Shown: positions 2,632 to 47,859, numbered from the stretch's first letter. The stretch is 55,063 bases of DNA from an uncultured Thiotrichaceae bacterium (GCA_964485705.1 CAZALW010000001.1:1-55063), one strand, 5' to 3'. Notes: generated from the sequence alone by a model not told the origin. Numbers and translations: made by a program.

Positions 2632-2750
2632 ACACTATCACCTCTGTAGTATTATAAGTTATTCTGTAACTACGCCATCCTTTGATTCATAAGCACCATA
2701 TCCACGTGGCACTGCTCAATAAGTCAGGCAAAATCAATATTATCCTCAAC

Positions 2751-3752
2751 TTATTGAGATGTTACTTCATCCCACGATAATAGCAGATTTTCCCATAATA
2801 ACTGTTCGTTTACTGCAATTGCGCTGTGTAATAAATTGAAGTTTAGCTGATCAACAAAACGATATAAGCGTTGTTGATTTACCTTTTTTGCCAATGTCTG
2901 TAATTTAAGACGGTATTGGTCATTTGTGATCTGGGCTTCTGAGCCACATGATTGCAATTTCGCCAGGTCTGCGGCCCAACTCATCATGCCTTCCAGAGTA
3001 CGAGTTTTTGAAAATTTCGCCAGTTTTGTTGCATAATCCAGAGAATTTTTACCTGAATCTAACGCTGTCATTGCCTCAGAAAGAATCTCCTGAAACTCAG
3101 CCTGCTGCAAGTACTCTAAAGCAGCAAGGGGCGAGCCAAAGGCATATTTTAGTGATTGCTGTAACTGGCTATCAGTAAACCCCAATTGTTGATTGCGCTT
3201 TAACCATTGCAGTGACTGACTTTCATCCGGCACATTAAAACGTAGCTGTTGACAACGACTTCGTATGGTTACCGGCAAACGGTGTGTTCGAGCAGTAACC
3301 AGTAGAATAAGTACATTTTCACCTGGTTCTTCCAGTGTCTTTAACAAACTATTTGCCCCTTGCAGAGTTAATTGCTCTGCCTGGTTAAGAATGGCAACAC
3401 GAAAGCCACCGTATTGACTGGTCTGGTTTAATTTTTCACACAAAACGCGAATATCATCAATTCGAATGCTTAGTACAGGATTTTTACTTCTTGATGTCGC
3501 TGGCGCTGTTGGTTTTAAATAATACAGATCAGGATGGGTATTTGCTGCCAACAGCTGGCAGGCCTTGCATAAACCACAGGCCTGATGATCGGATATTGGC
3601 TGCTGACACAAAACTGCATTTGCCATTGCCGTAGCAAAATCAGCCTTACCCAAACCCTGATTACCATACAATAGCATCGCGTGCGGCAGCCGTTCAGTTT
3701 TTAATAACTGTGCTATTTTTTGCCATTGATTTTGTTGCCAGGGATAAATCAT
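2751..3752 (-). CDS. holB: DNA polymerase III subunit delta prime
   Basis: 333 aa. Degenerate P-loop region (GNQGLGK), Cys-rich zinc module (C..C..CxxC), SRC motif (IRSRCQ). tmk-holB synteny. Confidence 0.85.
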   Translation of the reverse strand: MIYPWQQNQWQKIAQLLKTERLPHAMLLYGNQGLGKADFATAMANAVLCQQPISDHQACGLCKACQLLAANTHPDLYYLKPTAPATSRSKNPVLSIRIDDIRVLCEKLNQTSQYGGFRVAILNQAEQLTLQGANSLLKTLEEPGENVLILLVTARTHRLPVTIRSRCQQLRFNVPDESQSLQWLKRNQQLGFTDSQLQQSLKYAFGSPLAALEYLQQAEFQEILSEAMTALDSGKNSLDYATKLAKFSKTRTLEGMMSWAADLAKLQSCGSEAQITNDQYRLKLQTLAKKVNQQRLYRFVDQLNFNLLHSAIAVNEQLLWENLLLSWDEVTSQ

Positions 3753-7988: not shown

Positions 7989-8046
7989 AACCACGAAACA
8001 CACGAAACACACTAAAAGTTTCGTGTATTTCGTGTATTTCGTGGTT
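7989..8046. repeat. hairpin repeat whose arms are short tandem repeats (family F type)
   Basis: AACCACGAAACACACGAAACACAC ... GTTTCGTGTATTTCGTGTATTTCGTGGTT. Lies in the pabB-fabF spacer. Confidence 0.75.
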
Positions 8047-13106: not shown

Positions 13107-13196
13107 TTATTTTTGTAGTTTGCCATTGTTTTGCGCTTAAACAAACATAAAGTTAGCCGCGAAAAAGGAAAAAGACGTAAAGAAAAACTTTATCCG

Positions 13197-13360
13197 TCCA
13201 CAGATGAACGCAAATGAACGCAAATAAAAAACTTAGATTGGTTAGTGAATGTCATCTTGAGTGAAGTGATAGCTCTTGAACTGTCGTTGTATAAGAACTC
13301 TTCTTGTACTCGAGATGGTACACTTTTAACAGATTGTTTTTATTTGCGTTCATCTGTGGA
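13197..13360. repeat. family F-type hairpin repeat
   Basis: TCCACAGATGAACGCAAATGAACGCAAATAAAAAAC ... GTTTTTATTTGCGTTCATCTGTGGA. Ends 3 nt from the dnaJ stop. Confidence 0.75.
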
Positions 13361-14503: not shown

Positions 14504-14577
14504 ATTCTTATTTCTATTAAACTTTTGTAATAAAGACTAATTTAACCGCTGAGGCAAGACATAAAAAAACACTATTT

Positions 14578-14654
14578 AGCCGCAAAAAACGCAAAGAGCG
14601 CAAAGAAAAACTTGTGTTGTTTTTACATTTGCGCCTTTTGCGTCCTTTGCGGCT
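14578..14654. repeat. family F-type hairpin repeat
   Basis: AGCCGCAAAAAACGCAAAGAGCGCAAAGAAAAAC ... TTTGCGCCTTTTGCGTCCTTTGCGGCT, with 9-nt periodic arms. Confidence 0.8.
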
Positions 14655-14674
14655 AAAAGTTTTTCTTTCAGCCC

Positions 14675-14840
14675 CTAGGAGCTTGTCCGAGAATGGAAAA
14701 CCTACTGCAAAACCGACATTTTTGCCCATTTTTCCGAACATTTTCGTTAAATAGCGGTGCTATTCGCCTCAAATGTTCGAAAAACTGGACTAAAAATCTC
14801 GATTTTTCGCTACGGTTTCCATTCTCGGACAAGCTCCTAG
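14675..14840. mobile_element. MITE-like element, family B (B1)
   Basis: Inverted termini CTAGGAGCTTGTCCGAGAATGGAAA ... TTTCCATTCTCGGACAAGCTCCTAG. Lies in the dnaJ-dnaK spacer. Confidence 0.8.
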
Positions 14841-16897: not shown

Positions 16898-16928
16898 CTT
16901 TTTGAAGTTAAAAGAGATTCAATTATGT

Positions 16929-17049
16929 TAGGAGCTTGTCCAAGAATAGAAATCGTAGCGAGGGGAGAAGCTGATTTGAGTCAGATTTTTTCATTATTTG
17001 AGGCGAGTAGTGGTGCATGGATGCACCACTGCTCTCGGACAAGCTCCTG
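16929..17049. mobile_element. MITE-like element, family B (B2)
   Basis: TAGGAGCTTGTCCAAGAATAGAAATCGTAGCG ... CTCTCGGACAAGCTCCTGA. Lies in the dnaK-grpE spacer. The internal part carries a family-A-like palindrome. Confidence 0.75.
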
Positions 17050-17082
17050 AACCAGAAAAACACACATCCGCAAATAAAATGC

Positions 17083-22024: not shown

Positions 22025-22492
22025 CTAAAAACGTTTTAAAGATTCAAGTTTCTGGTTGGCATGATTGTAGGCTGTTTCATCATCTAAAACCATGCTTGCA
22101 TCGCGTATAAATGACCAGTTCAGTAATTGTAATTCAGCGTCTGAAAAGGCAAAACTATTGCTGCGTTTAGCCATCTGTACTGCACGCTCGGGTGCGTTCT
22201 CCTGTAACGCCAACCAGGACAAACGACTCCATGCAGGCGCATATTGCGGTTTGATGCGTAGTATGCGTTCAAGTTTGTCTGTCGCGGCATCAAACTCCTG
22301 ATTTATTATTAGTGTATCAACGTCATCCAGCAAACTGTTTATCGCACCATTGCCAATAGAGGGGTTCATTTGCCAGGCATTAAATTGATAATTTCCCGGC
22401 TGTTCAACAGCGGTGTCAATAATAAACTTTTCTGTTGAAGCACACGAAGCCAGTAACAGTAATAAAAACAGGCTGGATAATAGTCGATACAA
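22025..22492 (-). CDS. TPR-repeat lipoprotein
   Basis: TTG start at 22492 preceded by GGAG. Signal peptide with lipobox (LLLLASC). TPR-like C-terminal region. The ORF-track extension to 22714 reads through a repeat element and a duplicated copy of the same start region. Confidence 0.6.
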   Translation of the reverse strand: MYRLLSSLFLLLLLASCASTEKFIIDTAVEQPGNYQFNAWQMNPSIGNGAINSLLDDVDTLIINQEFDAATDKLERILRIKPQYAPAWSRLSWLALQENAPERAVQMAKRSNSFAFSDAELQLLNWSFIRDASMVLDDETAYNHANQKLESLKRF

Positions 22493-22529
22493 AACGTAAA
22501 ACTCCGAGGTTAATTCAAGGGCATCTTTT

Positions 22530-22683
22530 CTCGTTACCACGCACTGCGTGGTAATGCAGCGATTAACGCACCAGCGTTTCTGTAGAGACAGAGACAAGGC
22601 ATGCCTTGTCTCTACGTGCCTTGTTGCATCCCGTAACGCTGGTGCGTTAGCTACTGCGTTACCACGCGGTGCGTGGTAACGAG
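22530..22683. mobile_element. REPIN/MITE-like element, family D (copy D1)
   Basis: Terminal inverted repeats CTCGTTACCACGCACTGCGTGGTAATGCA / ...TTACCACGCGGTGCGTGGTAACGAG. Each end is itself a 9-bp-stem palindrome. Confidence 0.8.
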
Positions 22684-22746
22684 ATAAAAACAAACTGGAT
22701 AATAGTCGATACAAAGTACAAGACTCCGGGGTTCATTTTAAGGGCA
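22684..22746 (-). pseudogene. duplicated copy of the lipoprotein gene 5' UTR, RBS, TTG start and first ~10 codons
   Basis: Roughly 80% identical by eye to 22462-22523. The two copies are separated by repeat element D1. Confidence 0.7.
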
Positions 22747-22770
22747 GTAATTTTGGCTTGTAAAAAAATT

Positions 22771-25393: not shown

Positions 25394-25439
25394 CTGTTTA
25401 AAACCCGAAAAAGTGCTACTGTTAAACAATGTTAAACAA
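25394..25439 (+). promoter_or_regulatory. candidate operator of the RHH/ParE module
   Basis: Tandem TGTTAAACAA x2 (25420-25439) directly before the RBS, plus an upstream inverted-like TGTTTAAAAC (25394-25403). Confidence 0.35.
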
Positions 25440-25451
25440 AAGAGGTGCGTC

Positions 25452-25718
25452 ATGCTAGGTGTCCGATTAGAACCAGAACTGGAGCAGCGTCTGACGATAT
25501 TAGCGAAAAAAACAAAACGATCAAAAAGCTATCTTACTAAGGAAGCCCTGCGAGATTATATTGACCGATTAGAAAACCAGGAGAAACGACGACAAGAAAC
25601 ACTGGATCGCTGGGAGGCTTATGAACTAACGGGTAAAACGGTTGATCATAATTTGATGGCTAGTTGGTTAGAGTCCTGGGGCGATGATAAGGAAAAACCA
25701 TGCCCGACTACAAAATAG
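25452..25718 (+). CDS. ribbon-helix-helix (CopG/ParD-like) antitoxin
   Basis: ATG at 25452 preceded by AGAGGTG. N-terminal MLGVRLEPELEQRL..AKKTKRSKSYLTKEAL is a typical RHH motif. Overlaps the downstream toxin gene. Confidence 0.75.
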   Translation: MLGVRLEPELEQRLTILAKKTKRSKSYLTKEALRDYIDRLENQEKRRQETLDRWEAYELTGKTVDHNLMASWLESWGDDKEKPCPTTK

Positions 25719-25999
25719 AATGGTTATCCGAAGCAGCAAATGACGTAATCAGACTGAGAGAGTTCATAAATAAAGAAAATCCTCTAGCTGCAAAAAACGC
25801 TGGTCATCGAATTCTTAGTGCAGTTGATTTACTGACAAAAAATCCAGAGGCAGGAATGCCAAGCCCTGACCAAGACTGTGAATCGTTTAGAGACTTATAT
25901 GCTCCCTTTGGTAAAGGAGGATACACAATTCGTTATCGCATCAAACAACAGATAATTGTTATCGTTCGCGTCTGGCACAGCCGAGAAGATCGCGCTTAA
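25700..25999 (+). CDS. RelE/ParE-family toxin
   Basis: 99 aa with a ParE-like pattern, including the C-terminal VRVWHSREDR. Overlaps the RHH gene by 19 nt. Confidence 0.75.
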   Translation: MPDYKIEWLSEAANDVIRLREFINKENPLAAKNAGHRILSAVDLLTKNPEAGMPSPDQDCESFRDLYAPFGKGGYTIRYRIKQQIIVIVRVWHSREDRA

Positions 26000-26093: not shown

Positions 26094-27572
26094 ATGCCCC
26101 TTGACTACCAGACCCTTGAGGCACTCAGGCAAAACCACCCTGCCTGGCGTTTGCTTACCAGCCCTCATGCACCTTTAATAGCCAGTTTTTTATCGATGGT
26201 TTTTGTCGATAAAAATGTACGGGTGATGCCGCAGGCCGATTTGATAGAAGCACTGGAAGATGAATTATTTCATTTGCGGGAAATACTGGGCGACGATGCG
26301 TTTCCTAAATCTGCGCTAAATTATTTGAATGACTGGGCAGCAGCAGAAAAAGGCTGGCTACGAAAATTCTATCGCCAGGATTCTGATGAGGTACAGTTCG
26401 ACTTAACCCCGGCAACCGAAAAAGCCATCGCCTGGCTGGAGAATCTCAGCCAGCGTAACTTCATCGGCACTGAATCACGATTACTGACATTGTTTGAATT
26501 GCTGCGCCAGCTCAGCGAAGGCAGCGATGACGATCCACAAAGCCGCTTGCAGGAATTGCAAAAACGTCGTGAAACCATTGATGCTGAAATTGCACAGGTG
26601 GCGCTGGGCAATGTCACCCTGCTGGATGACACCGCTTTAAAAGACCGTTTCATGCAATTTAACCAGCAGGCTCGCGAATTGCTTTCTGACTTTCGCGAAG
26701 TTGAACATAATTTCCGCCAGCTTGATCGCCGCGTGCGTGAGCGCATTGCCAGTTGGGATGGTAAAAAAGGTGAATTATTGAGTGAAATCATGGGCGAGCG
26801 CGATGCCATTGCTGATTCCGATCAAGGTGCCAGCTTTCGTGCCTTTTGGGACTTCCTGATGTCACCCCAGCGTCAGCAAGAATTCAGCGAACGGCTGGAT
26901 AAAGTGCTGACATTATCAGCGATAGTGGAATTAAAACCCGACAAACGTACGCGCCGCATACATCACGACTGGCTTGAAGCCGGTGAATTCACACAACGCA
27001 CAGTGGCACAGTTATCCCAGCAATTACGCCGTTTTCTTGACGATCAGGCATGGCTGGAAAATCGCCGTATTATGGATATTCTGCATGGCATTGAAAGCAA
27101 AACCCTGCAAATGCGAGACAATCTATTTGCCTCACCTACTAGCAATGAATTTATCAGCATTGACGCTTTATCCAGCAGTATCGAACTGCCCATGGAACGG
27201 CCACTATACCGCCCGCCAGTCAAACCAAAAATCACCAATATCCTGTTGCAGGACGGTGATGAAAATCTTGATGCCAGCGCTCTATACAGCCAGAGCGTTG
27301 TCGACAAGGCTGCCATTGCCAGTCATATTCGCCAGTCTTTACAGCAACACTCACAGGTATTGCTGTCTGAGTTATGCCAGACACAACCGCTAAAACAGGG
27401 ATTGGCTGAACTTCTTGCCTACCTTGAACTTGGCAATGAAGACGGCTCTGGCGGACGCTTTACACTGCTGATTAACGATGAAATTGAAGATATAATCAGC
27501 TGGACAGGCGAAGATGAAAAACAACGCCGGGTTAGAATGCCACGTATGATTTATTTGCGTCCTGCAGGCTGA
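26094..27572 (+). CDS. jetA: Wadjet JetA (DUF3375-like, kleisin-type subunit; MksB-like)
   Basis: 492 aa. The N-terminal pattern (PAWRLL...PLI.SFL...F....V.....L...L...L..LR.....FP..A..YL.DW......WLRKFY...SDE..FDLTPA.EKAI.WL..L....FIGTESRL) matches my recollection of DUF3375. First gene of a four-gene operon with the typical Wadjet size order. Confidence 0.85.
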   Translation: MPLDYQTLEALRQNHPAWRLLTSPHAPLIASFLSMVFVDKNVRVMPQADLIEALEDELFHLREILGDDAFPKSALNYLNDWAAAEKGWLRKFYRQDSDEVQFDLTPATEKAIAWLENLSQRNFIGTESRLLTLFELLRQLSEGSDDDPQSRLQELQKRRETIDAEIAQVALGNVTLLDDTALKDRFMQFNQQARELLSDFREVEHNFRQLDRRVRERIASWDGKKGELLSEIMGERDAIADSDQGASFRAFWDFLMSPQRQQEFSERLDKVLTLSAIVELKPDKRTRRIHHDWLEAGEFTQRTVAQLSQQLRRFLDDQAWLENRRIMDILHGIESKTLQMRDNLFASPTSNEFISIDALSSSIELPMERPLYRPPVKPKITNILLQDGDENLDASALYSQSVVDKAAIASHIRQSLQQHSQVLLSELCQTQPLKQGLAELLAYLELGNEDGSGGRFTLLINDEIEDIISWTGEDEKQRRVRMPRMIYLRPAG

Positions 27573-27575
27573 TAA

Positions 27576-27640
27576 CTAGGAGCTTGTCCGAGAATAGAAA
27601 TCGTAGCGAAAATCACAAAGAAGCCATAAGGTGAGTTGCC
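27576..27640. mobile_element. family B element, left half only (B3)
   Basis: CTAGGAGCTTGTCCGAGAATAGAAATCGTAGCGAAAA... starts 3 nt after the jetA stop. The right terminus is missing and the element abuts element C. Confidence 0.65.
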
Positions 27641-27752
27641 CTCGTTCACACGCTCCCGCGTGGGAATGCATACTAAACGCTCCACTGACACTGGTAAGTA
27701 TGTGGCTAACAAACAGCAGGTATGCATTCCCACGCAGGAGCGTGGGAACGAG
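27641..27752. mobile_element. REPIN/MITE-like element, family C (related architecture to D)
   Basis: Termini CTCGTTCACACGCTCCCGCGTGGGAATGCATAC ... GTATGCATTCCCACGCAGGAGCGTGGGAACGAG. Confidence 0.75.
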
Positions 27753-27754
27753 AA

Positions 27755-27845
27755 CAAGATATAATCAGCTGGACAGGCGAAGATGAAAAACAATGCCGGG
27801 TTAAAATGCCGCGTATAATTTATTTACCTGCTGCAGGGTTGATGA
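27755..27845 (+). pseudogene. relic duplicate of the jetA 3' end
   Basis: 75/84 nt identical to 27486-27569 by hand alignment. Sits between a repeat insertion and jetB. Confidence 0.8.
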
Positions 27846-27882
27846 ACATTTATCGTAACTTCTCAATACATATAAAACGCAA

Positions 27883-28551
27883 ATGCAAACAAAAAACCAA
27901 AACCCTTCCAGCGAAAACACAGCCACAGCGCAGACCGACCTGAGCCGCCTGCTGGTGGTATTATTAAAAGGCATTCTGTATAAGGAAGACGACAGCAAAC
28001 GCTGGGCTGATTTGCTGGAACTGCAAAACCAGGTGAGAGATTATGTGTCCATTATCGGGCTGGAATTACACCTGGATGAGGCAGAAGCTTATGCCTTTTT
28101 ACGCAGCCATCAGGAAGACGATGAAGACACCGAAACCAGTGACCCTGGTCAGATAAACAACTCAGGCAATGCCATTCCACGCCTGATAAGCCGCAGACAA
28201 CTGTCTTTCCCGGTCAGTTTGCTGCTGGCATTGTTGCGAAAAAAGCTGGCAGAATTTGATGCCACCGGTGGCGATACCCGGCTGATTTTAAGCCGCGACA
28301 ACATGGTTAATCTAATCCGGCTATTCCTGCCCATTAGTAGCAACGAAGCCAAACTGGTGGATCAAATCGAACGCCATATAAACAAAATAGTAGAGCTGGG
28401 TTTTTTGCGGCGCTTAAAATCAGCCACAGCAGGCAGCCAGCCCAGTTACGAAGTACGGCGAATTATCCAGGCCTTTGTCGATGCAGAATGGCTGGCAGAA
28501 TTTGATGCTAAACTTGAAAGCTATCGACAACTGTTAAACAACAATGACTAA
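27883..28551 (+). CDS. jetB: Wadjet JetB (DUF4194-like; MksE-like)
   Basis: 222 aa. LLKGILYKEDD..W..LL.....VRDY....GLEL.LDEAE.YAFLR matches the DUF4194 pattern. Its stop overlaps the jetC start by 8 nt. Confidence 0.85.
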   Translation: MQTKNQNPSSENTATAQTDLSRLLVVLLKGILYKEDDSKRWADLLELQNQVRDYVSIIGLELHLDEAEAYAFLRSHQEDDEDTETSDPGQINNSGNAIPRLISRRQLSFPVSLLLALLRKKLAEFDATGGDTRLILSRDNMVNLIRLFLPISSNEAKLVDQIERHINKIVELGFLRRLKSATAGSQPSYEVRRIIQAFVDAEWLAEFDAKLESYRQLLNNND

Positions 28552-31500
28552 AACAATGCCCACTCAACCTGTTGCATTAGGTCTCGATTTTACTGACGAT
28601 AACGCACTGAGCGGTTACCGGCTAAAAAGACTTGAAGTACTCAACTGGGGTACCTTTAATGACCAGATCTGGACATTAAATCTGGATGGAAAAAACTGCC
28701 TGCTCACCGGTGATATTGGCTCTGGAAAATCCACTCTGGTCGATGCGGTCACCACCCTGCTGGTGCCTGCCAACAAGGTAGATTATAACAAAGCCGCCGG
28801 TGCTGAAAAGAAAGAACGCCATCTACGCTCATACGTACTGGGTTATTATAAATCGGAACGCAATGAAACCACCGGTAAAGCCAGACCCGTTGCCCTGCGT
28901 AATCAGAACAGCTACTCGGTGATACTCGGCGTATTCTACAATCAGGGCTACGATCAGACCGTTACCCTGGCACAGGTATTCTGGATGAAAGAGTTGCAGG
29001 GGCAACCTGAACGCTTTTTTATAGGTGCTGAAAAAGCACTTGGCATTAAACAGGACTTCGCCCAGTTTGGCAGCGAAATTAACGCACTGCGTAAACGCCT
29101 GCGCAAAACCGGCTGCGAGGTGATGGATCGATTCCCTCAGTATGGTGCCTGGTTTCGTCGCCGTTTTGGTATTGATAACGATCAGGCACTGGATTTATTT
29201 CACCAGACGGTGTCGATGAAATCAGTCGGCAACCTAACCCAGTTTGTACGTGGTCACATGCTGGAACCGTTTGATGTCACGCCACGCATCAAAGCCTTGA
29301 TAGAACATTTCGATGACCTGAACCGGGCACACGAAGCGGTTTTAAAAGCCCGCAGTCAAATAGAAAAACTAAACCCGTTAATTAGCGATTGTGACCAGCA
29401 TCAACAGCAAAATCATGAGGTCGAGACTTTACGCCAAAGCCGTGAAGCACTGGCAAGCTATTTTGCCGGGAAAAAACTACAGTTGCTGGAACAACGTCTG
29501 CAGCGCCTGCAACAGGATCTTGACCGACAACATAACAAAGTAGAAAAACTTGGCTCAGAAGAGCAGCAACAACAATATCAGCAACAGGAATTAAAACAAC
29601 AAATTGCCGATAATGGCGGCGATCGTATCGCTCGCCTGCAACAGGAAATTGATCAATTACAACGTGAACGTGAACGTCGCCATGATAAAGCCAGACGCTA
29701 TCGCGACCTGTCAGAGCCTCTGGCTCTGCAAACTGTGGACAATGCTGACGATTTTTTGCAACAACAAAATACCTTGCAGAAAAAACAAACACAATTACAG
29801 CAACAACAGGCGGATAACAACAACCAACTGCGTGAAATCGAGTTTGATTTTTTGCGCAAAAAAGAACAGTACAATACGCTCAAGCAAACCATTAAAGATC
29901 TTAAATTACGACAAAGCAATATCGAACAGAATCAAATAAATATTCGCCAGCTGTTATGCCAGGCACTGTCGCTGGATGAAAATGAATTACCTTTTGCAGG
30001 TGAGTTATTGCAAGTACATGAAGAAGATAAAACATGGCAAGGCGCTATTGAACGTCTGATGCATAATTTTGCTTTATCCATGCTGGTACCGGACGAGCTT
30101 TATAGCCAGGTCGCAGAATGGGTAGACCAAACCCGTCTACGCGGTCGTCTGGTGTATTTTCGAGTGCTAGCAAAAACGCAAGTCACGCAGGCATCCGCAC
30201 AGCCAGACTCGCTAATACGAAAAATTGCCATTAAACCGGATTCGGCATTTTACCCCTGGCTGGAACAGGAATTGTTTCGCCGTTTTGATGTTGCCTGTTG
30301 TGAAACCCAACAACAGTTTCGCCGCGAAAAACGCGCCATTACACGTAACGGACAAATTAAATTCTCCGGCGGTCGTCATGAAAAAGATGACCGCTTTACA
30401 CTCAATGATCAAAGCCGTTTTGTACTGGGCTGGAGCAATAAAGACAAAATCAACGCACTGGAAAACGAGGCAAGGCAACAAGAAAGAAGCATGGCTGACC
30501 TTGGCTTAAACATCAGTAAATTAAAACAACAGGAACAGCAGATTAACGACACCTTAAATACCATCAGCAAACTGGAGGAATACCGTGATTTTCAGGAGTT
30601 AGACTGGCAACCGCTGGCGCGACAAATTGCTGACAAACAAAATGAGCTGAAACAAATAGAATCTGCATCCGACCTGTTACAAACCCTGACTCAAAAATTA
30701 AAAGTACTGGCACAACAATATGTCGAAATTTTACAAAAGCTGGATCAGGTAAAAGCTGAACGGGCAAAAACCGAGCAAAAAATTGACGATGCCAGACAGC
30801 TACAACAGGACACGGCTGCGCTTATTGATGAGAGCCAGGCAAAACAACAGCAGCACTATTATGCAAACCTGGAACAACAGCAACAGGCAATGGATGAACA
30901 TAGATTAACCGTTGAGTCCTGCGATAATCAACAGCAACTTATGCGTAAATGGCTGCAGGAAAAAATTGATGCACAGGACAGAAAAATCAGTCGTTTGCAG
31001 GAAAAAATTGTCAAAGCCATGAGCGAGTACAAAAACAGTTACAAACTGGAAACGCAGGAGGTTGATGCAGCGGTAGAAGCAGCAGCCGACTACCGGCAAA
31101 TGCTGCTAGCACTACAGGCGGACGACCTGCCCCGCTTCGAGGCACGTTTTAAAGATTTGCTCAATGAGAACACTATTCGTGAAGTTGCCAACTTTCAATC
31201 ACAACTGCATCGTGAGCGCGAAACCATTAAAGAGCGCATCGCTCAAATCAACGATTCCCTGACACAAATTGATTACAACCCCGCTCGTTATATCACCCTG
31301 GAAGCGCAGCCCACTCAGGATGCGGATATCCGTGATTTCCAGACCGAATTACGCGCCTGCACCGAAGGCGCACTAACCGGCTCAGAAGACGAACAGTATT
31401 CAGAAACCAAGTTTTTACAGGTTAAACACATTATTGAACGCTTTCGAGGTCGTGAAGGACTCAGTGAACAGGACAAACGCTGGACAAACAAAGTCAGTGA

Positions 31501-31939
31501 TGTGCGTAACTGGTTCAGCTTTGCCGCCTCAGAACGCTGGCGCGAAGATGACAACGAGTTTGAACATTATTCAGATTCAGGCGGCAAATCCGGTGGTCAG
31601 AAAGAAAAACTGGCGTATACCATTCTGGCTGCCAGCCTGGCGTATCAATTTGGCCTGGAATGGGGCGCCATTCGCTCCCGTTCCTTCCGCTTTGTGGTGA
31701 TTGACGAAGCCTTTGGTCGTGGCTCGGATGAATCGGCTGACTATGGACTCAGACTGTTTGAACAATTAAACCTGCAACTGCTGATCGTTACTCCATTACA
31801 GAAAATTCATATCATCGAGCCCTATGTTGCCAGTGTCGGTTTTGTCCACAACGAAGGTGGTCGCACATCGAAACTTCGCAACCTGACTATCGAAGCCTAC
31901 CATCAGGAAAAAGCACAACTGCTGAATGCCAAAAAATAG
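28544..31939 (+). CDS. jetC: Wadjet JetC (SMC-like ABC ATPase; MksF-like)
   Basis: 1131 aa. Walker A GDIGSGKST (28709-28735). Central coiled-coil-type region rich in Q/E/K/L/R (my estimate >600 aa). Signature-like SGGQKEK (31589-31609). Walker B FVVIDEAF (31691-31714). Confidence 0.9.
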   Translation: MTKTMPTQPVALGLDFTDDNALSGYRLKRLEVLNWGTFNDQIWTLNLDGKNCLLTGDIGSGKSTLVDAVTTLLVPANKVDYNKAAGAEKKERHLRSYVLGYYKSERNETTGKARPVALRNQNSYSVILGVFYNQGYDQTVTLAQVFWMKELQGQPERFFIGAEKALGIKQDFAQFGSEINALRKRLRKTGCEVMDRFPQYGAWFRRRFGIDNDQALDLFHQTVSMKSVGNLTQFVRGHMLEPFDVTPRIKALIEHFDDLNRAHEAVLKARSQIEKLNPLISDCDQHQQQNHEVETLRQSREALASYFAGKKLQLLEQRLQRLQQDLDRQHNKVEKLGSEEQQQQYQQQELKQQIADNGGDRIARLQQEIDQLQRERERRHDKARRYRDLSEPLALQTVDNADDFLQQQNTLQKKQTQLQQQQADNNNQLREIEFDFLRKKEQYNTLKQTIKDLKLRQSNIEQNQINIRQLLCQALSLDENELPFAGELLQVHEEDKTWQGAIERLMHNFALSMLVPDELYSQVAEWVDQTRLRGRLVYFRVLAKTQVTQASAQPDSLIRKIAIKPDSAFYPWLEQELFRRFDVACCETQQQFRREKRAITRNGQIKFSGGRHEKDDRFTLNDQSRFVLGWSNKDKINALENEARQQERSMADLGLNISKLKQQEQQINDTLNTISKLEEYRDFQELDWQPLARQIADKQNELKQIESASDLLQTLTQKLKVLAQQYVEILQKLDQVKAERAKTEQKIDDARQLQQDTAALIDESQAKQQQHYYANLEQQQQAMDEHRLTVESCDNQQQLMRKWLQEKIDAQDRKISRLQEKIVKAMSEYKNSYKLETQEVDAAVEAAADYRQMLLALQADDLPRFEARFKDLLNENTIREVANFQSQLHRERETIKERIAQINDSLTQIDYNPARYITLEAQPTQDADIRDFQTELRACTEGALTGSEDEQYSETKFLQVKHIIERFRGREGLSEQDKRWTNKVSDVRNWFSFAASERWREDDNEFEHYSDSGGKSGGQKEKLAYTILAASLAYQFGLEWGAIRSRSFRFVVIDEAFGRGSDESADYGLRLFEQLNLQLLIVTPLQKIHIIEPYVASVGFVHNEGGRTSKLRNLTIEAYHQEKAQLLNAKK

Positions 31940-31978
31940 AATGATTGCAACTACTCCGCAGCAGCAAAAAATAAACAG

Positions 31979-32112
31979 ATTCACCACTAAGTTCACCAAG
32001 TTCACGAAGAAAAATGATTGTAAATGTTCAACACAATTTAATGTGGCATATATTATGTACCATGACCAATATACTTTAAAACTTCGTGGTCTTCGTGTAC
32101 TTCGTGGTAAAT
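31979..32112. repeat. family F-type hairpin repeat (CACGAAG subtype)
   Basis: ATTCACCACTAAGTTCACCAAGTTCACGAAG ... CTTCGTGGTCTTCGTGTACTTCGTGGTAAAT. Same subtype as 47739-47859. Confidence 0.75.
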
Positions 32113-32121
32113 CATTTTAAT

Positions 32122-32343
32122 CTCGTTACCACGCACTGCGTGGTAATGCAGGAGCTAACGCACCAGCGTTACATCAGAAAGACAAGAACCCCAATATCAA
32201 TACCAGCACAATAGTCTGCCACAACAATAACACTGAGAATAAGCATGGGACGCAGCCACTCAATATGGCATAGACCCGATATTCGAGACATTTTAACGCT
32301 GGTGCGTTAATCACTGCATTACCACGCAGTGCGTGGTAACGAG
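32122..32343. mobile_element. REPIN/MITE-like element, family D (copy D2)
   Basis: Same termini as D1 (CTCGTTACCACGCACTGCGTGGTAATGCA ... TGCATTACCACGCAGTGCGTGGTAACGAG), with a different internal sequence. Confidence 0.8.
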
Positions 32344-32346
32344 CCA

Positions 32347-32442
32347 AACGAAGATGGTCGCAGCTCCAAACTTCGCAACCTTACAATTGAAGCCTATCAC
32401 CATGAAAAAGCACAACTGCATGAACGCCAGACAAAAGGATGA
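32347..32442 (+). pseudogene. relic duplicate of the jetC 3' end with fossil stop/start overlap onto jetD
   Basis: 63/73 nt identical to 31850-31922. Its reading frame ends in a TGA (32440-32442) that overlaps the jetD ATG (32439-32441). Confidence 0.8.
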
Positions 32443-33653
32443 ATAACACAACATGCTCCTGGGGTAATAAAAAATCACTGTTAAAGCAGTTGCAAAAATT
32501 ATGGGATAACGGTGCGCTACTAAAAGAAATCGAGTGGCAAAGTGATTTTTTTCCAAAACGATTGCGTTTTAACACGCCAAACAGCAAAGCACTGAGTAAT
32601 GATTTTGAGGCTGTACGTAATTGGGTGAACGACATACAAAAACTACACGGTTTCCGCATTGTTTATAAAACAGTGCGCCACCCGGTCATCGGTAAAAATC
32701 GCGTACCTGATCAAGTCTGGATTGACAGCATAGACATCGCCATTACCCTGCTCAATAAACAGAAACAGGTAAATATATTTTTAAGCCTGCTTGAACAGAC
32801 AAAAACACACACACCTGAAGTTATCGAATGGCTAAAAAAGCACCCGTTAAAAGCACTGTCACTGGCTGACTCCTGGGCAAAACTACTGGATTTTATACGC
32901 TGGCGACAACAGCACCCCTCACCCGATATATACCTGCGTCAGGTCAGTCTGGCCAATATCGACAGTAAATTTATCGAACAACACCGCGCCGTGCTGGCAC
33001 AATTATTAGACCTGGTTCTAACCGATGAACAGATAAATAATAAAAAAACCGGCATTAAACAGTTCGAAGTACGTTATGGTTTTCGCAGCAAGCCAGAAAA
33101 AATTCGCTTTCGCCTGTTAGACAACAAACTGGCTCAGTCACCGGCTCTATTGCCTGGAACTGATTGTGATTACAGCATCACTGCAGATGATTTTCAGCAG
33201 CTTGCCAAAAATTCTGACTTTGTCTCACACATCAAACGCGTTTTTATTACTGAAAACGAAATCAATTTTCTCAGTTTTCCAGCACAAAAAAACAGCCTGG
33301 TTATTTTTGGTTCGGGTTATGGTTTCGAGGCACTGGCAAAAGCACAATGGCTATCACAGTTAACTGTTTTTTACTGGGGCGATATCGATAGCCACGGCTT
33401 TGCCATACTTGACCAGCTACGTAACAAATTTCCTCATGTACAAAATCTGTTGATGGATGAAACAACATTACTGAAACACCGTGAATTCTGGGTGTACGAA
33501 CCAAAACCGGAAAATAGAGTACTACAGCGGCTTACTGCCAGCGAGCAAAAACTTTATCAGGCGCTTGTGGACAATCAATATGCCCAACATTTACGACTGG
33601 AACAGGAAAGAGTTGAATATAAATACCTGTTAAAGGTGTTAGCCAACACGTAG
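32439..33653 (+). CDS. jetD: Wadjet JetD (DUF3322 + DUF2220/Toprim nuclease; MksG-like)
   Basis: 404 aa. The C-terminal region carries a Toprim-like acidic motif ITENEINF (33252-33260) and WGDIDSHGF (DxD, 33378-33398). Last gene of the operon. Confidence 0.85.
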   Translation: MNNTTCSWGNKKSLLKQLQKLWDNGALLKEIEWQSDFFPKRLRFNTPNSKALSNDFEAVRNWVNDIQKLHGFRIVYKTVRHPVIGKNRVPDQVWIDSIDIAITLLNKQKQVNIFLSLLEQTKTHTPEVIEWLKKHPLKALSLADSWAKLLDFIRWRQQHPSPDIYLRQVSLANIDSKFIEQHRAVLAQLLDLVLTDEQINNKKTGIKQFEVRYGFRSKPEKIRFRLLDNKLAQSPALLPGTDCDYSITADDFQQLAKNSDFVSHIKRVFITENEINFLSFPAQKNSLVIFGSGYGFEALAKAQWLSQLTVFYWGDIDSHGFAILDQLRNKFPHVQNLLMDETTLLKHREFWVYEPKPENRVLQRLTASEQKLYQALVDNQYAQHLRLEQERVEYKYLLKVLANT

Positions 33654-47738: not shown

Positions 47739-47859
47739 TATTCACCACGAAGCTCACGAAGGACACGAAGATGGAACTAAATGTATCATCAAAACTGAAC
47801 GAAATGTTTTGCCCATTAATGTTAATTCCTTCGTGTTCTTCGTGAACTTCGAGGTGAAT
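47739..47859. repeat. family F-type hairpin repeat (CACGAAG subtype)
   Basis: ATTCACCACGAAGCTCACGAAGGACACGAAG ... CCTTCGTGTTCTTCGTGAACTTCGAGGTGAAT. Lies in the exbB-comEC spacer. Confidence 0.8.

Follow-up and report, generated by a model that had tools for sequence, protein, structure and literature searches.

The subject of this analysis is a four-gene operon at 26094-33653 in a stretch of DNA from an uncultured Thiotrichaceae bacterium (GCA_964485705.1, CAZALW010000001.1:1-55063), the whole of which, 55,063 nucleotides (nt) long, is referred to below as the window. The four open reading frames (ORFs) are co-directional, lie on the + strand in the order A-B-C-D and, judged by their sequence matches, very probably form a complete and working chromosomal type I Wadjet system, jetA-jetB-jetC-jetD, which is equivalent to mksF-E-B-G. 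Two of the three junctions between the genes are occupied by small hairpin elements, each of which stands between duplicated copies of the adjoining gene ends. Loci fetched from other genomes and samples for comparison carry L-numbers (L003, L247 and so on).

The operon and its four proteins

The genes of the operon are as follows.

26094-27572, + strand: jetA, MksF-like kleisin subunit, 492 amino acids (aa), intact
27883-28551, + strand: jetB, MksE-like KITE subunit, 222 aa, intact
28544-31939, + strand: jetC, MksB-like SMC ATPase, 1131 aa, intact
32439-33653, + strand: jetD, MksG-like nuclease with a DUF3322 arm and a Toprim domain, 404 aa, intact

A first-pass annotation of this DNA had called four + strand ORFs of 492, 222, 1131 and 404 aa with an 8-nt overlap between jetB and jetC, and both the ORFs and the overlap are where it placed them. 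The five motifs that it quoted also translate as written and at the positions given. In JetC, these are the Walker A motif GDIGSGKST (28709-28735, residues 56-64, including K62), the signature SGGQKEK (31589-31609, from residue 1016, with SGGQ at 1016-1019) and the Walker B motif FVVIDEAF (31691-31714, from residue 1050, including D1054 and E1055). In JetD, they are ENE (33252-33260), which starts at E272, and GDID (33378-33389), which supplies D315 and D317.

All four proteins were compared with Pfam, with the PADLOC models and with solved structures in the PDB. JetA matches DUF3375 (PF11855) with E 5.6e-154 over profile positions 2-473 of 474, PADLOC JetA1 with E 1e-213 over its full length and, in a direct sequence search of the PDB, the JetA of 8dk1 with E 8e-24. 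JetC contains AAA_29 (PF13555) and SbcC_Walker_B (PF13558), matches JetC1 with E 0 and 1612 bits over residues 13-1125, and matches the JetC of 8as8 with E 3e-62 over residues 24-1118. JetD contains DUF3322 (PF11795, E 2e-47) and JetD_C (PF09983, E 3e-49) and matches JetD1 with E 2e-131; among solved structures it matches MksG (8b7f, E 6e-18) and also JetD (8q72 and 7til). In the alignment with 8q72, the position opposite E272 is the catalytic one that was mutated in E. coli JetD (E248A); the DxD motif is conserved as well. JetB matches DUF4194 (PF13835, E 2e-42), MksE (PF21980, E 1e-14) and JetB1 (E 4e-86). Its match to a solved JetB (8dk1_E, E 4e-6) was obtained solely through a profile of 20 homologues; a single-sequence phmmer search with JetB against the PDB gave no significant match.

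The accessions PF11855, PF13835, PF13555, PF13558, PF11795 and PF09983 had been named in the first-pass annotation, and they are the ones actually hit. The hidden Markov model search that it proposed recovered DUF3375, DUF4194, AAA_29 with SbcC_Walker_B, and DUF3322 with the DUF2220-type JetD_C. Its assignment to type I Wadjet is borne out by full-length matches of all four proteins to Pfam and to the PADLOC type I models, and nothing that it had listed as a refutation was encountered. The top models are JetA1, JetB1, JetC1 and JetD1, while the type II and type III models give fragment matches only (E 1e-4 to 1e-8).

As a Wadjet system the operon is ordinary. The family is well characterised and its mechanism has been structurally solved. 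At least 7,994 relatives of JetA at E <= 1e-50 were found among 8,000 candidates examined; thousands of close homologues thus exist, and conceptually nothing is added to what is known of such systems.

Repeat elements and duplicated gene ends at the junctions

The gaps between jetA and jetB (310 nt) and between jetC and jetD (499 nt) are both abnormally long. In related operons, jetA and jetB overlap by 1 nt (L251 and L252) or are separated by 34-69 nt (L003, L006, L249 and L250), and jetC and jetD overlap by 4 nt (L249, L006 and L252). The exception is L247, where a jetA-jetB gap of about 200 nt is filled by an inverted-repeat element unrelated to the one found here. The long gaps, the repeat elements in them and the duplicated gene ends had been overlooked in the first-pass annotation. 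The features of the two junctions, together with a third element of the same kind located upstream of the operon, are listed here; no strand is assigned to the repeat elements.

22530-22683, no strand: E3, third REPIN-like element, between a TPR lipoprotein gene and mrcB
27485-27575, + strand: left copy of the jetA 3' end at E1, functional, with the stop codon; direct repeat of the right copy
27576-27640, no strand: arm of MITE-B (about 42 nt, 27576-27617) followed by about 26 nt of other sequence; exact 17-mer match at 27579-27595
27641-27752, no strand: E1, REPIN-like element of two inverted hairpin units in the jetA-jetB gap; inverted repeat of 38 nt, 89% complementary
27753-27850, + strand: right copy of the jetA 3' end, decayed, with indels and no proper in-frame stop; abuts E1
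31846-31971, + strand: left copy at E2, the functional jetC 3' end followed by a decayed 32-nt jetD 5' end (31940-31971)
31972-32119, no strand: MITE-C, third inverted-repeat family, with CTTCGTG-rich arms at 31972-32009 and 32082-32119
32122-32343, no strand: E2, REPIN-like element in the jetC-jetD gap, two inverted 50-nt arms (92% complementary) around a 122-nt spacer
32344-32438, + strand: right copy of the jetC 3' end, decayed; abuts E2

E1 is laid out as CTCGTTCACACGC-TCCC-GCGTGGGAATGCATAC ... GTATGCATTCCCACGC-AGGA-GCGTGGGAACGAG and, folded as RNA, reaches -67.7 kcal/mol (z = -10). The arms of E2 contain CTCGTTACCACGC-ACT-GCGTGGTAATGCAG..., and the hairpins in these arms have folding energies of -19.5 to -22.9 kcal/mol. 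The termini of the three elements follow the pattern CTCGTT(A/C)CCACGC-loop-GCGTGG(T/G)AA, with a compensatory C:G to A:T change in the stem separating E1 from E2 and E3. The window holds six such hairpin units, arranged as three inverted pairs, where 0.23 would be expected by chance. No further E element was found in the 10 kb added on each side of the window, and none is present at the orthologous junctions of L003, L247, L249, L006 and L252.

Each of the three elements is bracketed by a direct duplication of the sequence into which it appears to have gone. At E1, 82 nt can be aligned (27487-27568 against 27756-27837, 91% identity) within a duplication of about 92 nt. At E2, 73 nt can be aligned (31850-31922 against 32347-32419, 86%), and the right copy runs up to the jetD start, with which its end still shares the ancestral ATGA stop/start overlap. 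The 32-nt remnant that follows the jetC stop codon in the left copy matches the jetD starts of L247 and L252, and none of 2000 shuffled sequences matched as well; because of this remnant, the duplicated unit spans the whole jetC/jetD junction and measures about 126 nt. At E3, a segment of 68-70 nt (22462-22529 against 22684-22753) is flush with the element at both ends and duplicates the ribosome-binding site and about the first 11 codons of the lipoprotein gene, of which L003 has a single copy. The z-scores of these flank alignments range from 13 to 38 (38 for E1), and at each of the three sites the right copy directly adjoins the element. The orthologous junctions of L003, L247, L249, L006 and L252 contain one copy of each duplicated segment. 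Since a duplication of the junction brackets each insertion, both the 3' end of the upstream gene and the start of the downstream gene are left intact. An assembly artefact is ruled out, since L002, a second sample that was assembled independently, has E1 and E3 with their duplications and agrees at every base. Insertion at gene junctions with long duplications is a real and reproducible side observation.

The hairpin motif CTCGTTNCCACGC-N3-4-GCGTGGNAA is found far beyond this genome, in diverse phyla, metagenomes and viral contigs (more than 280 fetched loci, L007-L246 and L260-L302). In the genome collection the pattern occurs at a minimum of 120 loci, from Proteobacteria, Planctomycetes, Chloroflexi, Cyanobacteria, Acidobacteria and others; the A-variant occurs at at least 120 metagenome loci, and the general pattern in 43 viral contigs. 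The hairpin is often a singleton or an inverted pair, and often lies beside a second hairpin of the form GACGC-loop-GCGTC. By sequence, these elements resemble a REP-like family of wide distribution in which the tag differs from both GTAG and CGTC. Searching the full text of the literature with the hairpin sequence returned no paper. In a search of the window, no Rfam family reached its gathering threshold, and the gaps gave chance-level matches to eukaryotic miRNAs and snoRNAs only. A distant blastn search with E2 against plasmids gave no match, and no autonomous element, defined as a transposase-sized ORF enclosed by a pair of inverted hairpin units at a spacing of 0.7-4 kb, was found in 240 fetched loci.

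Two sources of the duplications have been considered. The first is that insertion of a REP/REPIN-like element in this lineage duplicates a very long stretch of the target (68 to about 126 nt), a proposal that we put forward tentatively and regard as possible rather than probable. E3 would be a textbook case, having both boundaries flush, and the right boundaries are flush at all three sites. There is also a precedent in IS1549 and IS1634, whose insertion generates long and variable direct repeats of 8-514 bp (PMC2266710). Against it, no matching transposase is known, and about 46 other pairs of the same hairpin, from genome, metagenome and viral loci, are without such a duplication. Long-duplication transposition as an inherent property of the whole hairpin family is accordingly not supported. 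Among those pairs there is one partial exception: in an unrelated metagenome-assembled genome (L072, 7160-7398), an 83-nt E1-like hairpin pair is flanked by a 39-nt direct duplication. This duplication is not flush, being 24 nt away on the left and 53 nt on the right, and the site lies in intergenic DNA between convergent genes, beyond the 3' end of a fumarase-like gene. None of the remaining pairs has a flanking duplication.

The second is, hypothetically, recombination between alleles. A recombination break is located at the jetC/jetD junction (32344-33653 against 6668-7727 of L247) and coincides with the E2 insertion, and jetD with the adjoining jetC remnant differs in ancestry from jetA-C. 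Compared with L247, the window shows a synonymous divergence (dS) of 0.21-0.39 in jetA-C and of 0.75 in jetD, the latter being as great as that from L003. In addition, the tail of the jetC remnant in the E2 right copy, GAACGCCAGACAAA, resembles the allele of L252 and not that of L247. Recombination would not explain three independent junctions at which the same type of element is flush with the right copy.

The individual copies do not speak uniformly. At jetA, both copies share derived bases that are absent from L003, which favours duplication on insertion and led us to reject the import of the extra jetA end from a foreign allele; the right copy keeps ancestral bases common to L247 and L003 at positions where the functional copy has changed. 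At jetC/jetD the picture is mixed, for the two copies share one derived base, yet the right copy and jetD differ in ancestry from jetA-C. The two processes may have been combined, with an old insertion accompanied by a duplication and a later allelic replacement that extended up to the insertion boundary.

Other small repeats accompany the E elements, and the genome carries several distinct families of them. MITE-B is a second inverted-repeat family with the terminus CTAGGAGCTTGTCCGAGAAT and has full copies at 14675-14840 and about 16928-17050; a solitary arm of it directly follows the jetA stop codon. The 58-65 nt between jetA and E1 were at one stage taken as part of the duplication, and this was dropped when they proved to be an arm of MITE-B. 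MITE-C is nested between the left copy of the jetC/jetD junction and E2; two further copies related to it, at about 7989-8046 and 47746-47853, likewise have CTTCGTG-rich arms. The element in the jetA-jetB gap of L247 (1749-1890) has arms CTGATTAGCCACGAAAGTCAGC... and looks loosely similar to MITE-C. Further inverted repeats, rich in GCAAA/TTTGC, are seen in intergenic DNA at 13153-13360 and 14564-14668 (arms 14564-14604 and 14628-14668).

Selection on the operon and its probable function

To judge from their substitution patterns, all four jet genes are evolving under purifying selection. Measured against L247 and L003, the ratio of non-synonymous to synonymous substitution rates (dN/dS) is 0.07-0.09 for jetA and jetC (0.08 for jetC), 0.21-0.23 for jetB and 0.15-0.22 for jetD, values that average over the whole divergence and not solely over the time since the insertions. 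The 6.7 kb of jet coding sequence contains no stop and no frameshift. The redundant duplicated gene ends, by contrast, are 9-14% diverged and carry indels. When random substitution was simulated at 2% of sites, about 6 new stops arose and none of 500 runs stayed open. No + strand intrinsic-terminator-like site was found inside the operon. Because dN/dS is low, the frames have stayed open despite the decay of the redundant copies, and the operon lacks an internal terminator-like site, a functional Wadjet system is rated as likely, an assessment drawn from homology and sequence constraint.

Several points weigh against this assessment. Firstly, the averaging noted above applies to every dN/dS value. 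Secondly, translational coupling appears to have been lost at two junctions, jetA-jetB and jetC-jetD: the ancestral ATGA overlap of jetC with jetD has gone, and jetA and jetB nearly abut in relatives. Thirdly, the transcript should now contain hairpins of up to -67.7 kcal/mol. Hairpins as stable as these may alter how strongly the subunits are expressed relative to one another, and expression or subunit stoichiometry could suffer. Fourthly, jetC is called as two ORFs (616 and 482 aa) in L006 (12184-15583), which suggests that JetC is disrupted in that lineage and means that decay of the operon does occur in this clade. Finally, an AlphaFold2 model of JetB built from a 20-sequence alignment is too poor to serve as structural support (predicted local distance difference test, pLDDT, 51; predicted template-modelling score, pTM, 0.34).

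The main rival explanation gathers some of these points into a decaying or silenced relic, in which repeat insertions have uncoupled the genes and plasmids are no longer restricted. This is improbable in our view. Two of the three junctions are indeed interrupted by repeat DNA with strong hairpins, the ancestral ATGA coupling is gone, jetC is split in L006, and toxin-antitoxin cassettes have entered the jetB/jetC junction in L247 and L252, so that operons of the clade have been eroded by insertions. The duplications, however, are precisely what keeps the neighbouring genes whole. All four ORFs are full length against their profiles, every catalytic motif is intact, and the frames contain neither a stop nor a frameshift, although the redundant junction copies beside them have diverged and neutral drift at even 2% would have closed them. 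The gaps, moreover, contain no + strand site resembling a terminator.

The junctions of this Wadjet lineage are recurrent landing sites for insertions, since REPIN-like and other repeats have entered them in the window, YefM-YoeB in L247, L252 and L251, and a different element in L247. In L247, the YefM-YoeB toxin-antitoxin cassette between jetB and jetC is intact (2667-3175). L252 (2431-2590) and L251 have an internally deleted remnant, in which the 5' end of yefM is fused to the 3' end of yoeB. When the L247 cassette was tested for a flanking duplication comparable with those of the E elements, about 20 nt were found to be loosely alike, which is not significant.

The mode of action of a functional Wadjet system at this locus would follow from homology with the systems of E. 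coli, Pseudomonas and Corynebacterium. JetC dimers would act as the SMC ATPase motor, with the kleisin JetA bridging the motor and JetB dimers binding to JetA. The JetABC complex would load on DNA and extrude loops. On a small closed circle it would meet itself and stall, and the stalled complex would license the JetD Toprim nuclease to cut; incoming plasmids would be destroyed and the large chromosome spared. In studied systems, JetABCD cleaves circular DNA of up to about 100 kb and thereby restricts it (10.1101/2022.10.04.510915), the reaction behind this restriction couples extrusion to cleavage (PMC10889018; 10.1101/2023.11.03.565488), and in plasmid defence by MksBEFG the nuclease that executes the cut is MksG (PMC10123090). 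From such homologues we infer that the operon described here would restrict and cleave small DNA circles in an ATP-dependent manner.

Two other identities were considered. A chromosome-organising condensin of the MukBEF/MksBEF type is very unlikely. JetABC is structurally a relative of MukBEF, JetB also matches the Pfam family MksE, and stable inheritance at a chromosomal locus would suit such a function; but the operon includes a full-length JetD/MksG nuclease gene, with the Toprim E and DxD intact, and the best PADLOC models are JetA1-D1 (E 1e-86 to 0). The presence of JetD/MksG is what separates Wadjet from the housekeeping MksBEF condensins. That the large protein is a repair ATPase of the RecN/SbcC/Rad50 type or a Lamassu LmuB with unrelated neighbours, an outcome close to the RecF/RecN/SbcC paralogue named as a possible refutation in the first-pass annotation, is refuted by the Pfam, PADLOC and PDB matches: a weak SMC_N match (E 8e-4, below the cut-off) and a marginal match to the PADLOC LmuB model (E 1e-8) stand against 1612 bits for JetC1 and a whole-length match to the JetC of the PDB, and the large protein has JetA, JetB and JetD as its neighbours.

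Chromosomal setting and comparison with known systems

The operon is flanked by genes for a DinG-like helicase, a TPR lipoprotein, PBP1B, a hybrid PAS/HisKA kinase and an MltF-like transglycosylase. The host is an uncultured gammaproteobacterium, and the PBP1B of the window has a 90% cluster partner labelled "Cardiobacterium sp. AH-315-I02". Directly upstream of jetA, and co-directional with it, lies a toxin-antitoxin pair.

25452-25718, + strand: RHH antitoxin, ParD/RelB-like (Pfam RHH_1, E 1e-4; RelB3_C on the 88-aa call)
25700-25999, + strand: ParE-family toxin (Pfam ParE_toxin, E 2.2e-15)

The maximal ORF of the antitoxin begins with GTG at 25413, and the ATG at 25452 has the better ribosome-binding site. 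The toxin gene overlaps the antitoxin gene and stops 94 nt upstream of jetA. The first-pass annotation had described ordinary chromosomal flanks with no integrase; the flanking genes are of that ordinary kind, and the 10 kb to the left and to the right contain no called integrase. It had also described the operon as the only clearly accessory block of the window, which overlooks this pair, and as lying inside core synteny. The operon itself is syntenic in L003, and is not a fresh insertion into core synteny.

In L003, a related species (JetA 88% identical at the aa level, dS about 0.7), jetABCD lies at the same mrcB/kinase locus. L006, a more distant relative, has the right flank alone in common with the window. 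Because the same locus is occupied in L003, the operon is a long-term resident and not a recent arrival, and its presence there predates the divergence of the two species. The RHH/ParE pair is missing from L003, where an unrelated 90-aa ORF is found instead, together with a HicAB pair beside mrcB. Defence operons of the Wadjet type are usually thought of as mobile; this one has been vertically stable at a single chromosomal locus across a species-level divergence (dS about 0.7).

The closest comparison for the operon as a whole is with the Wadjet systems of E. coli GF4-3 and P. aeruginosa PA14 (8as8, 8bfn, 8q72, 8dk1-3 and 7til). The same four families occur in the same order, with the same ATPase and Toprim motifs and similar sizes (JetC of 1131 aa against 1096-1119 aa; JetD of 404 aa against 390-399 aa), and direct sequence matches have E values of 3e-62 for JetC, 8e-24 for JetA and 1e-7 for JetD. 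The relationship is nevertheless distant, with phmmer scores of 214 bits for JetC and 30-35 bits for JetD, and JetB detected by profile only. Two junctions are interrupted by repeats here, whereas the operons of the fetched relatives, which serve for this comparison in place of the reference operons, are largely compact.

MksBEFG of C. glutamicum provides the best match for the Toprim domain of JetD (MksG, 8b7f, E 6e-18), including the E-x-E and GDxD motifs. It belongs to another phylum and carries another nomenclature, and its likeness to the present operon is one of sequence only.

The E elements invite comparison with two kinds of mobile DNA. Like REP and REPIN sequences (PMC3733652, PMC3116915), E1-E3 are inverted pairs of short hairpins with a spacer, and they recur in many genomes. 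REP elements are palindromic repeats associated with RAYT genes and bear GTAG or CGTC tags (PMC3733652, PMC3116915), whereas the unpaired tag of the E elements is CTCGTT / AACGAG, which is neither of these (PMC3733652). No RAYT gene was found in the 55-kb window or in 20 kb of extra flank. All three E copies are, moreover, flanked by duplications of 68-126 nt, and to our knowledge REPs have not been reported to make target duplications; nor do we know of a description of long-duplication insertion for any REP-like element. If the duplications are true target-site duplications, this would be a new behaviour for such elements. They would be able to enter operon junctions at which genes are tightly packed or overlap and still leave both genes alive, and this would open a route by which repeat DNA could colonise compact operons and possibly retune the subunit ratios of a defence complex.

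The second comparison is with IS1549 and IS1634, beyond which a literature search found no other bacterial elements reported to generate long and variable direct repeats when they insert. The E elements are hairpin dimers of 112-222 nt and not insertion sequences of 1.5-2 kb, and no transposase, of the IS1634 family or otherwise, was found in the window or its flanks. Their termini, CTCGTT(A/C)C, do not fit the IS1634 consensus C-----YT (PMC2266710). What the E elements do have in common with IS1549 and IS1634 is direct repeats that are both long and variable in length, measuring 68, about 92 and about 126 nt at the three sites described here.

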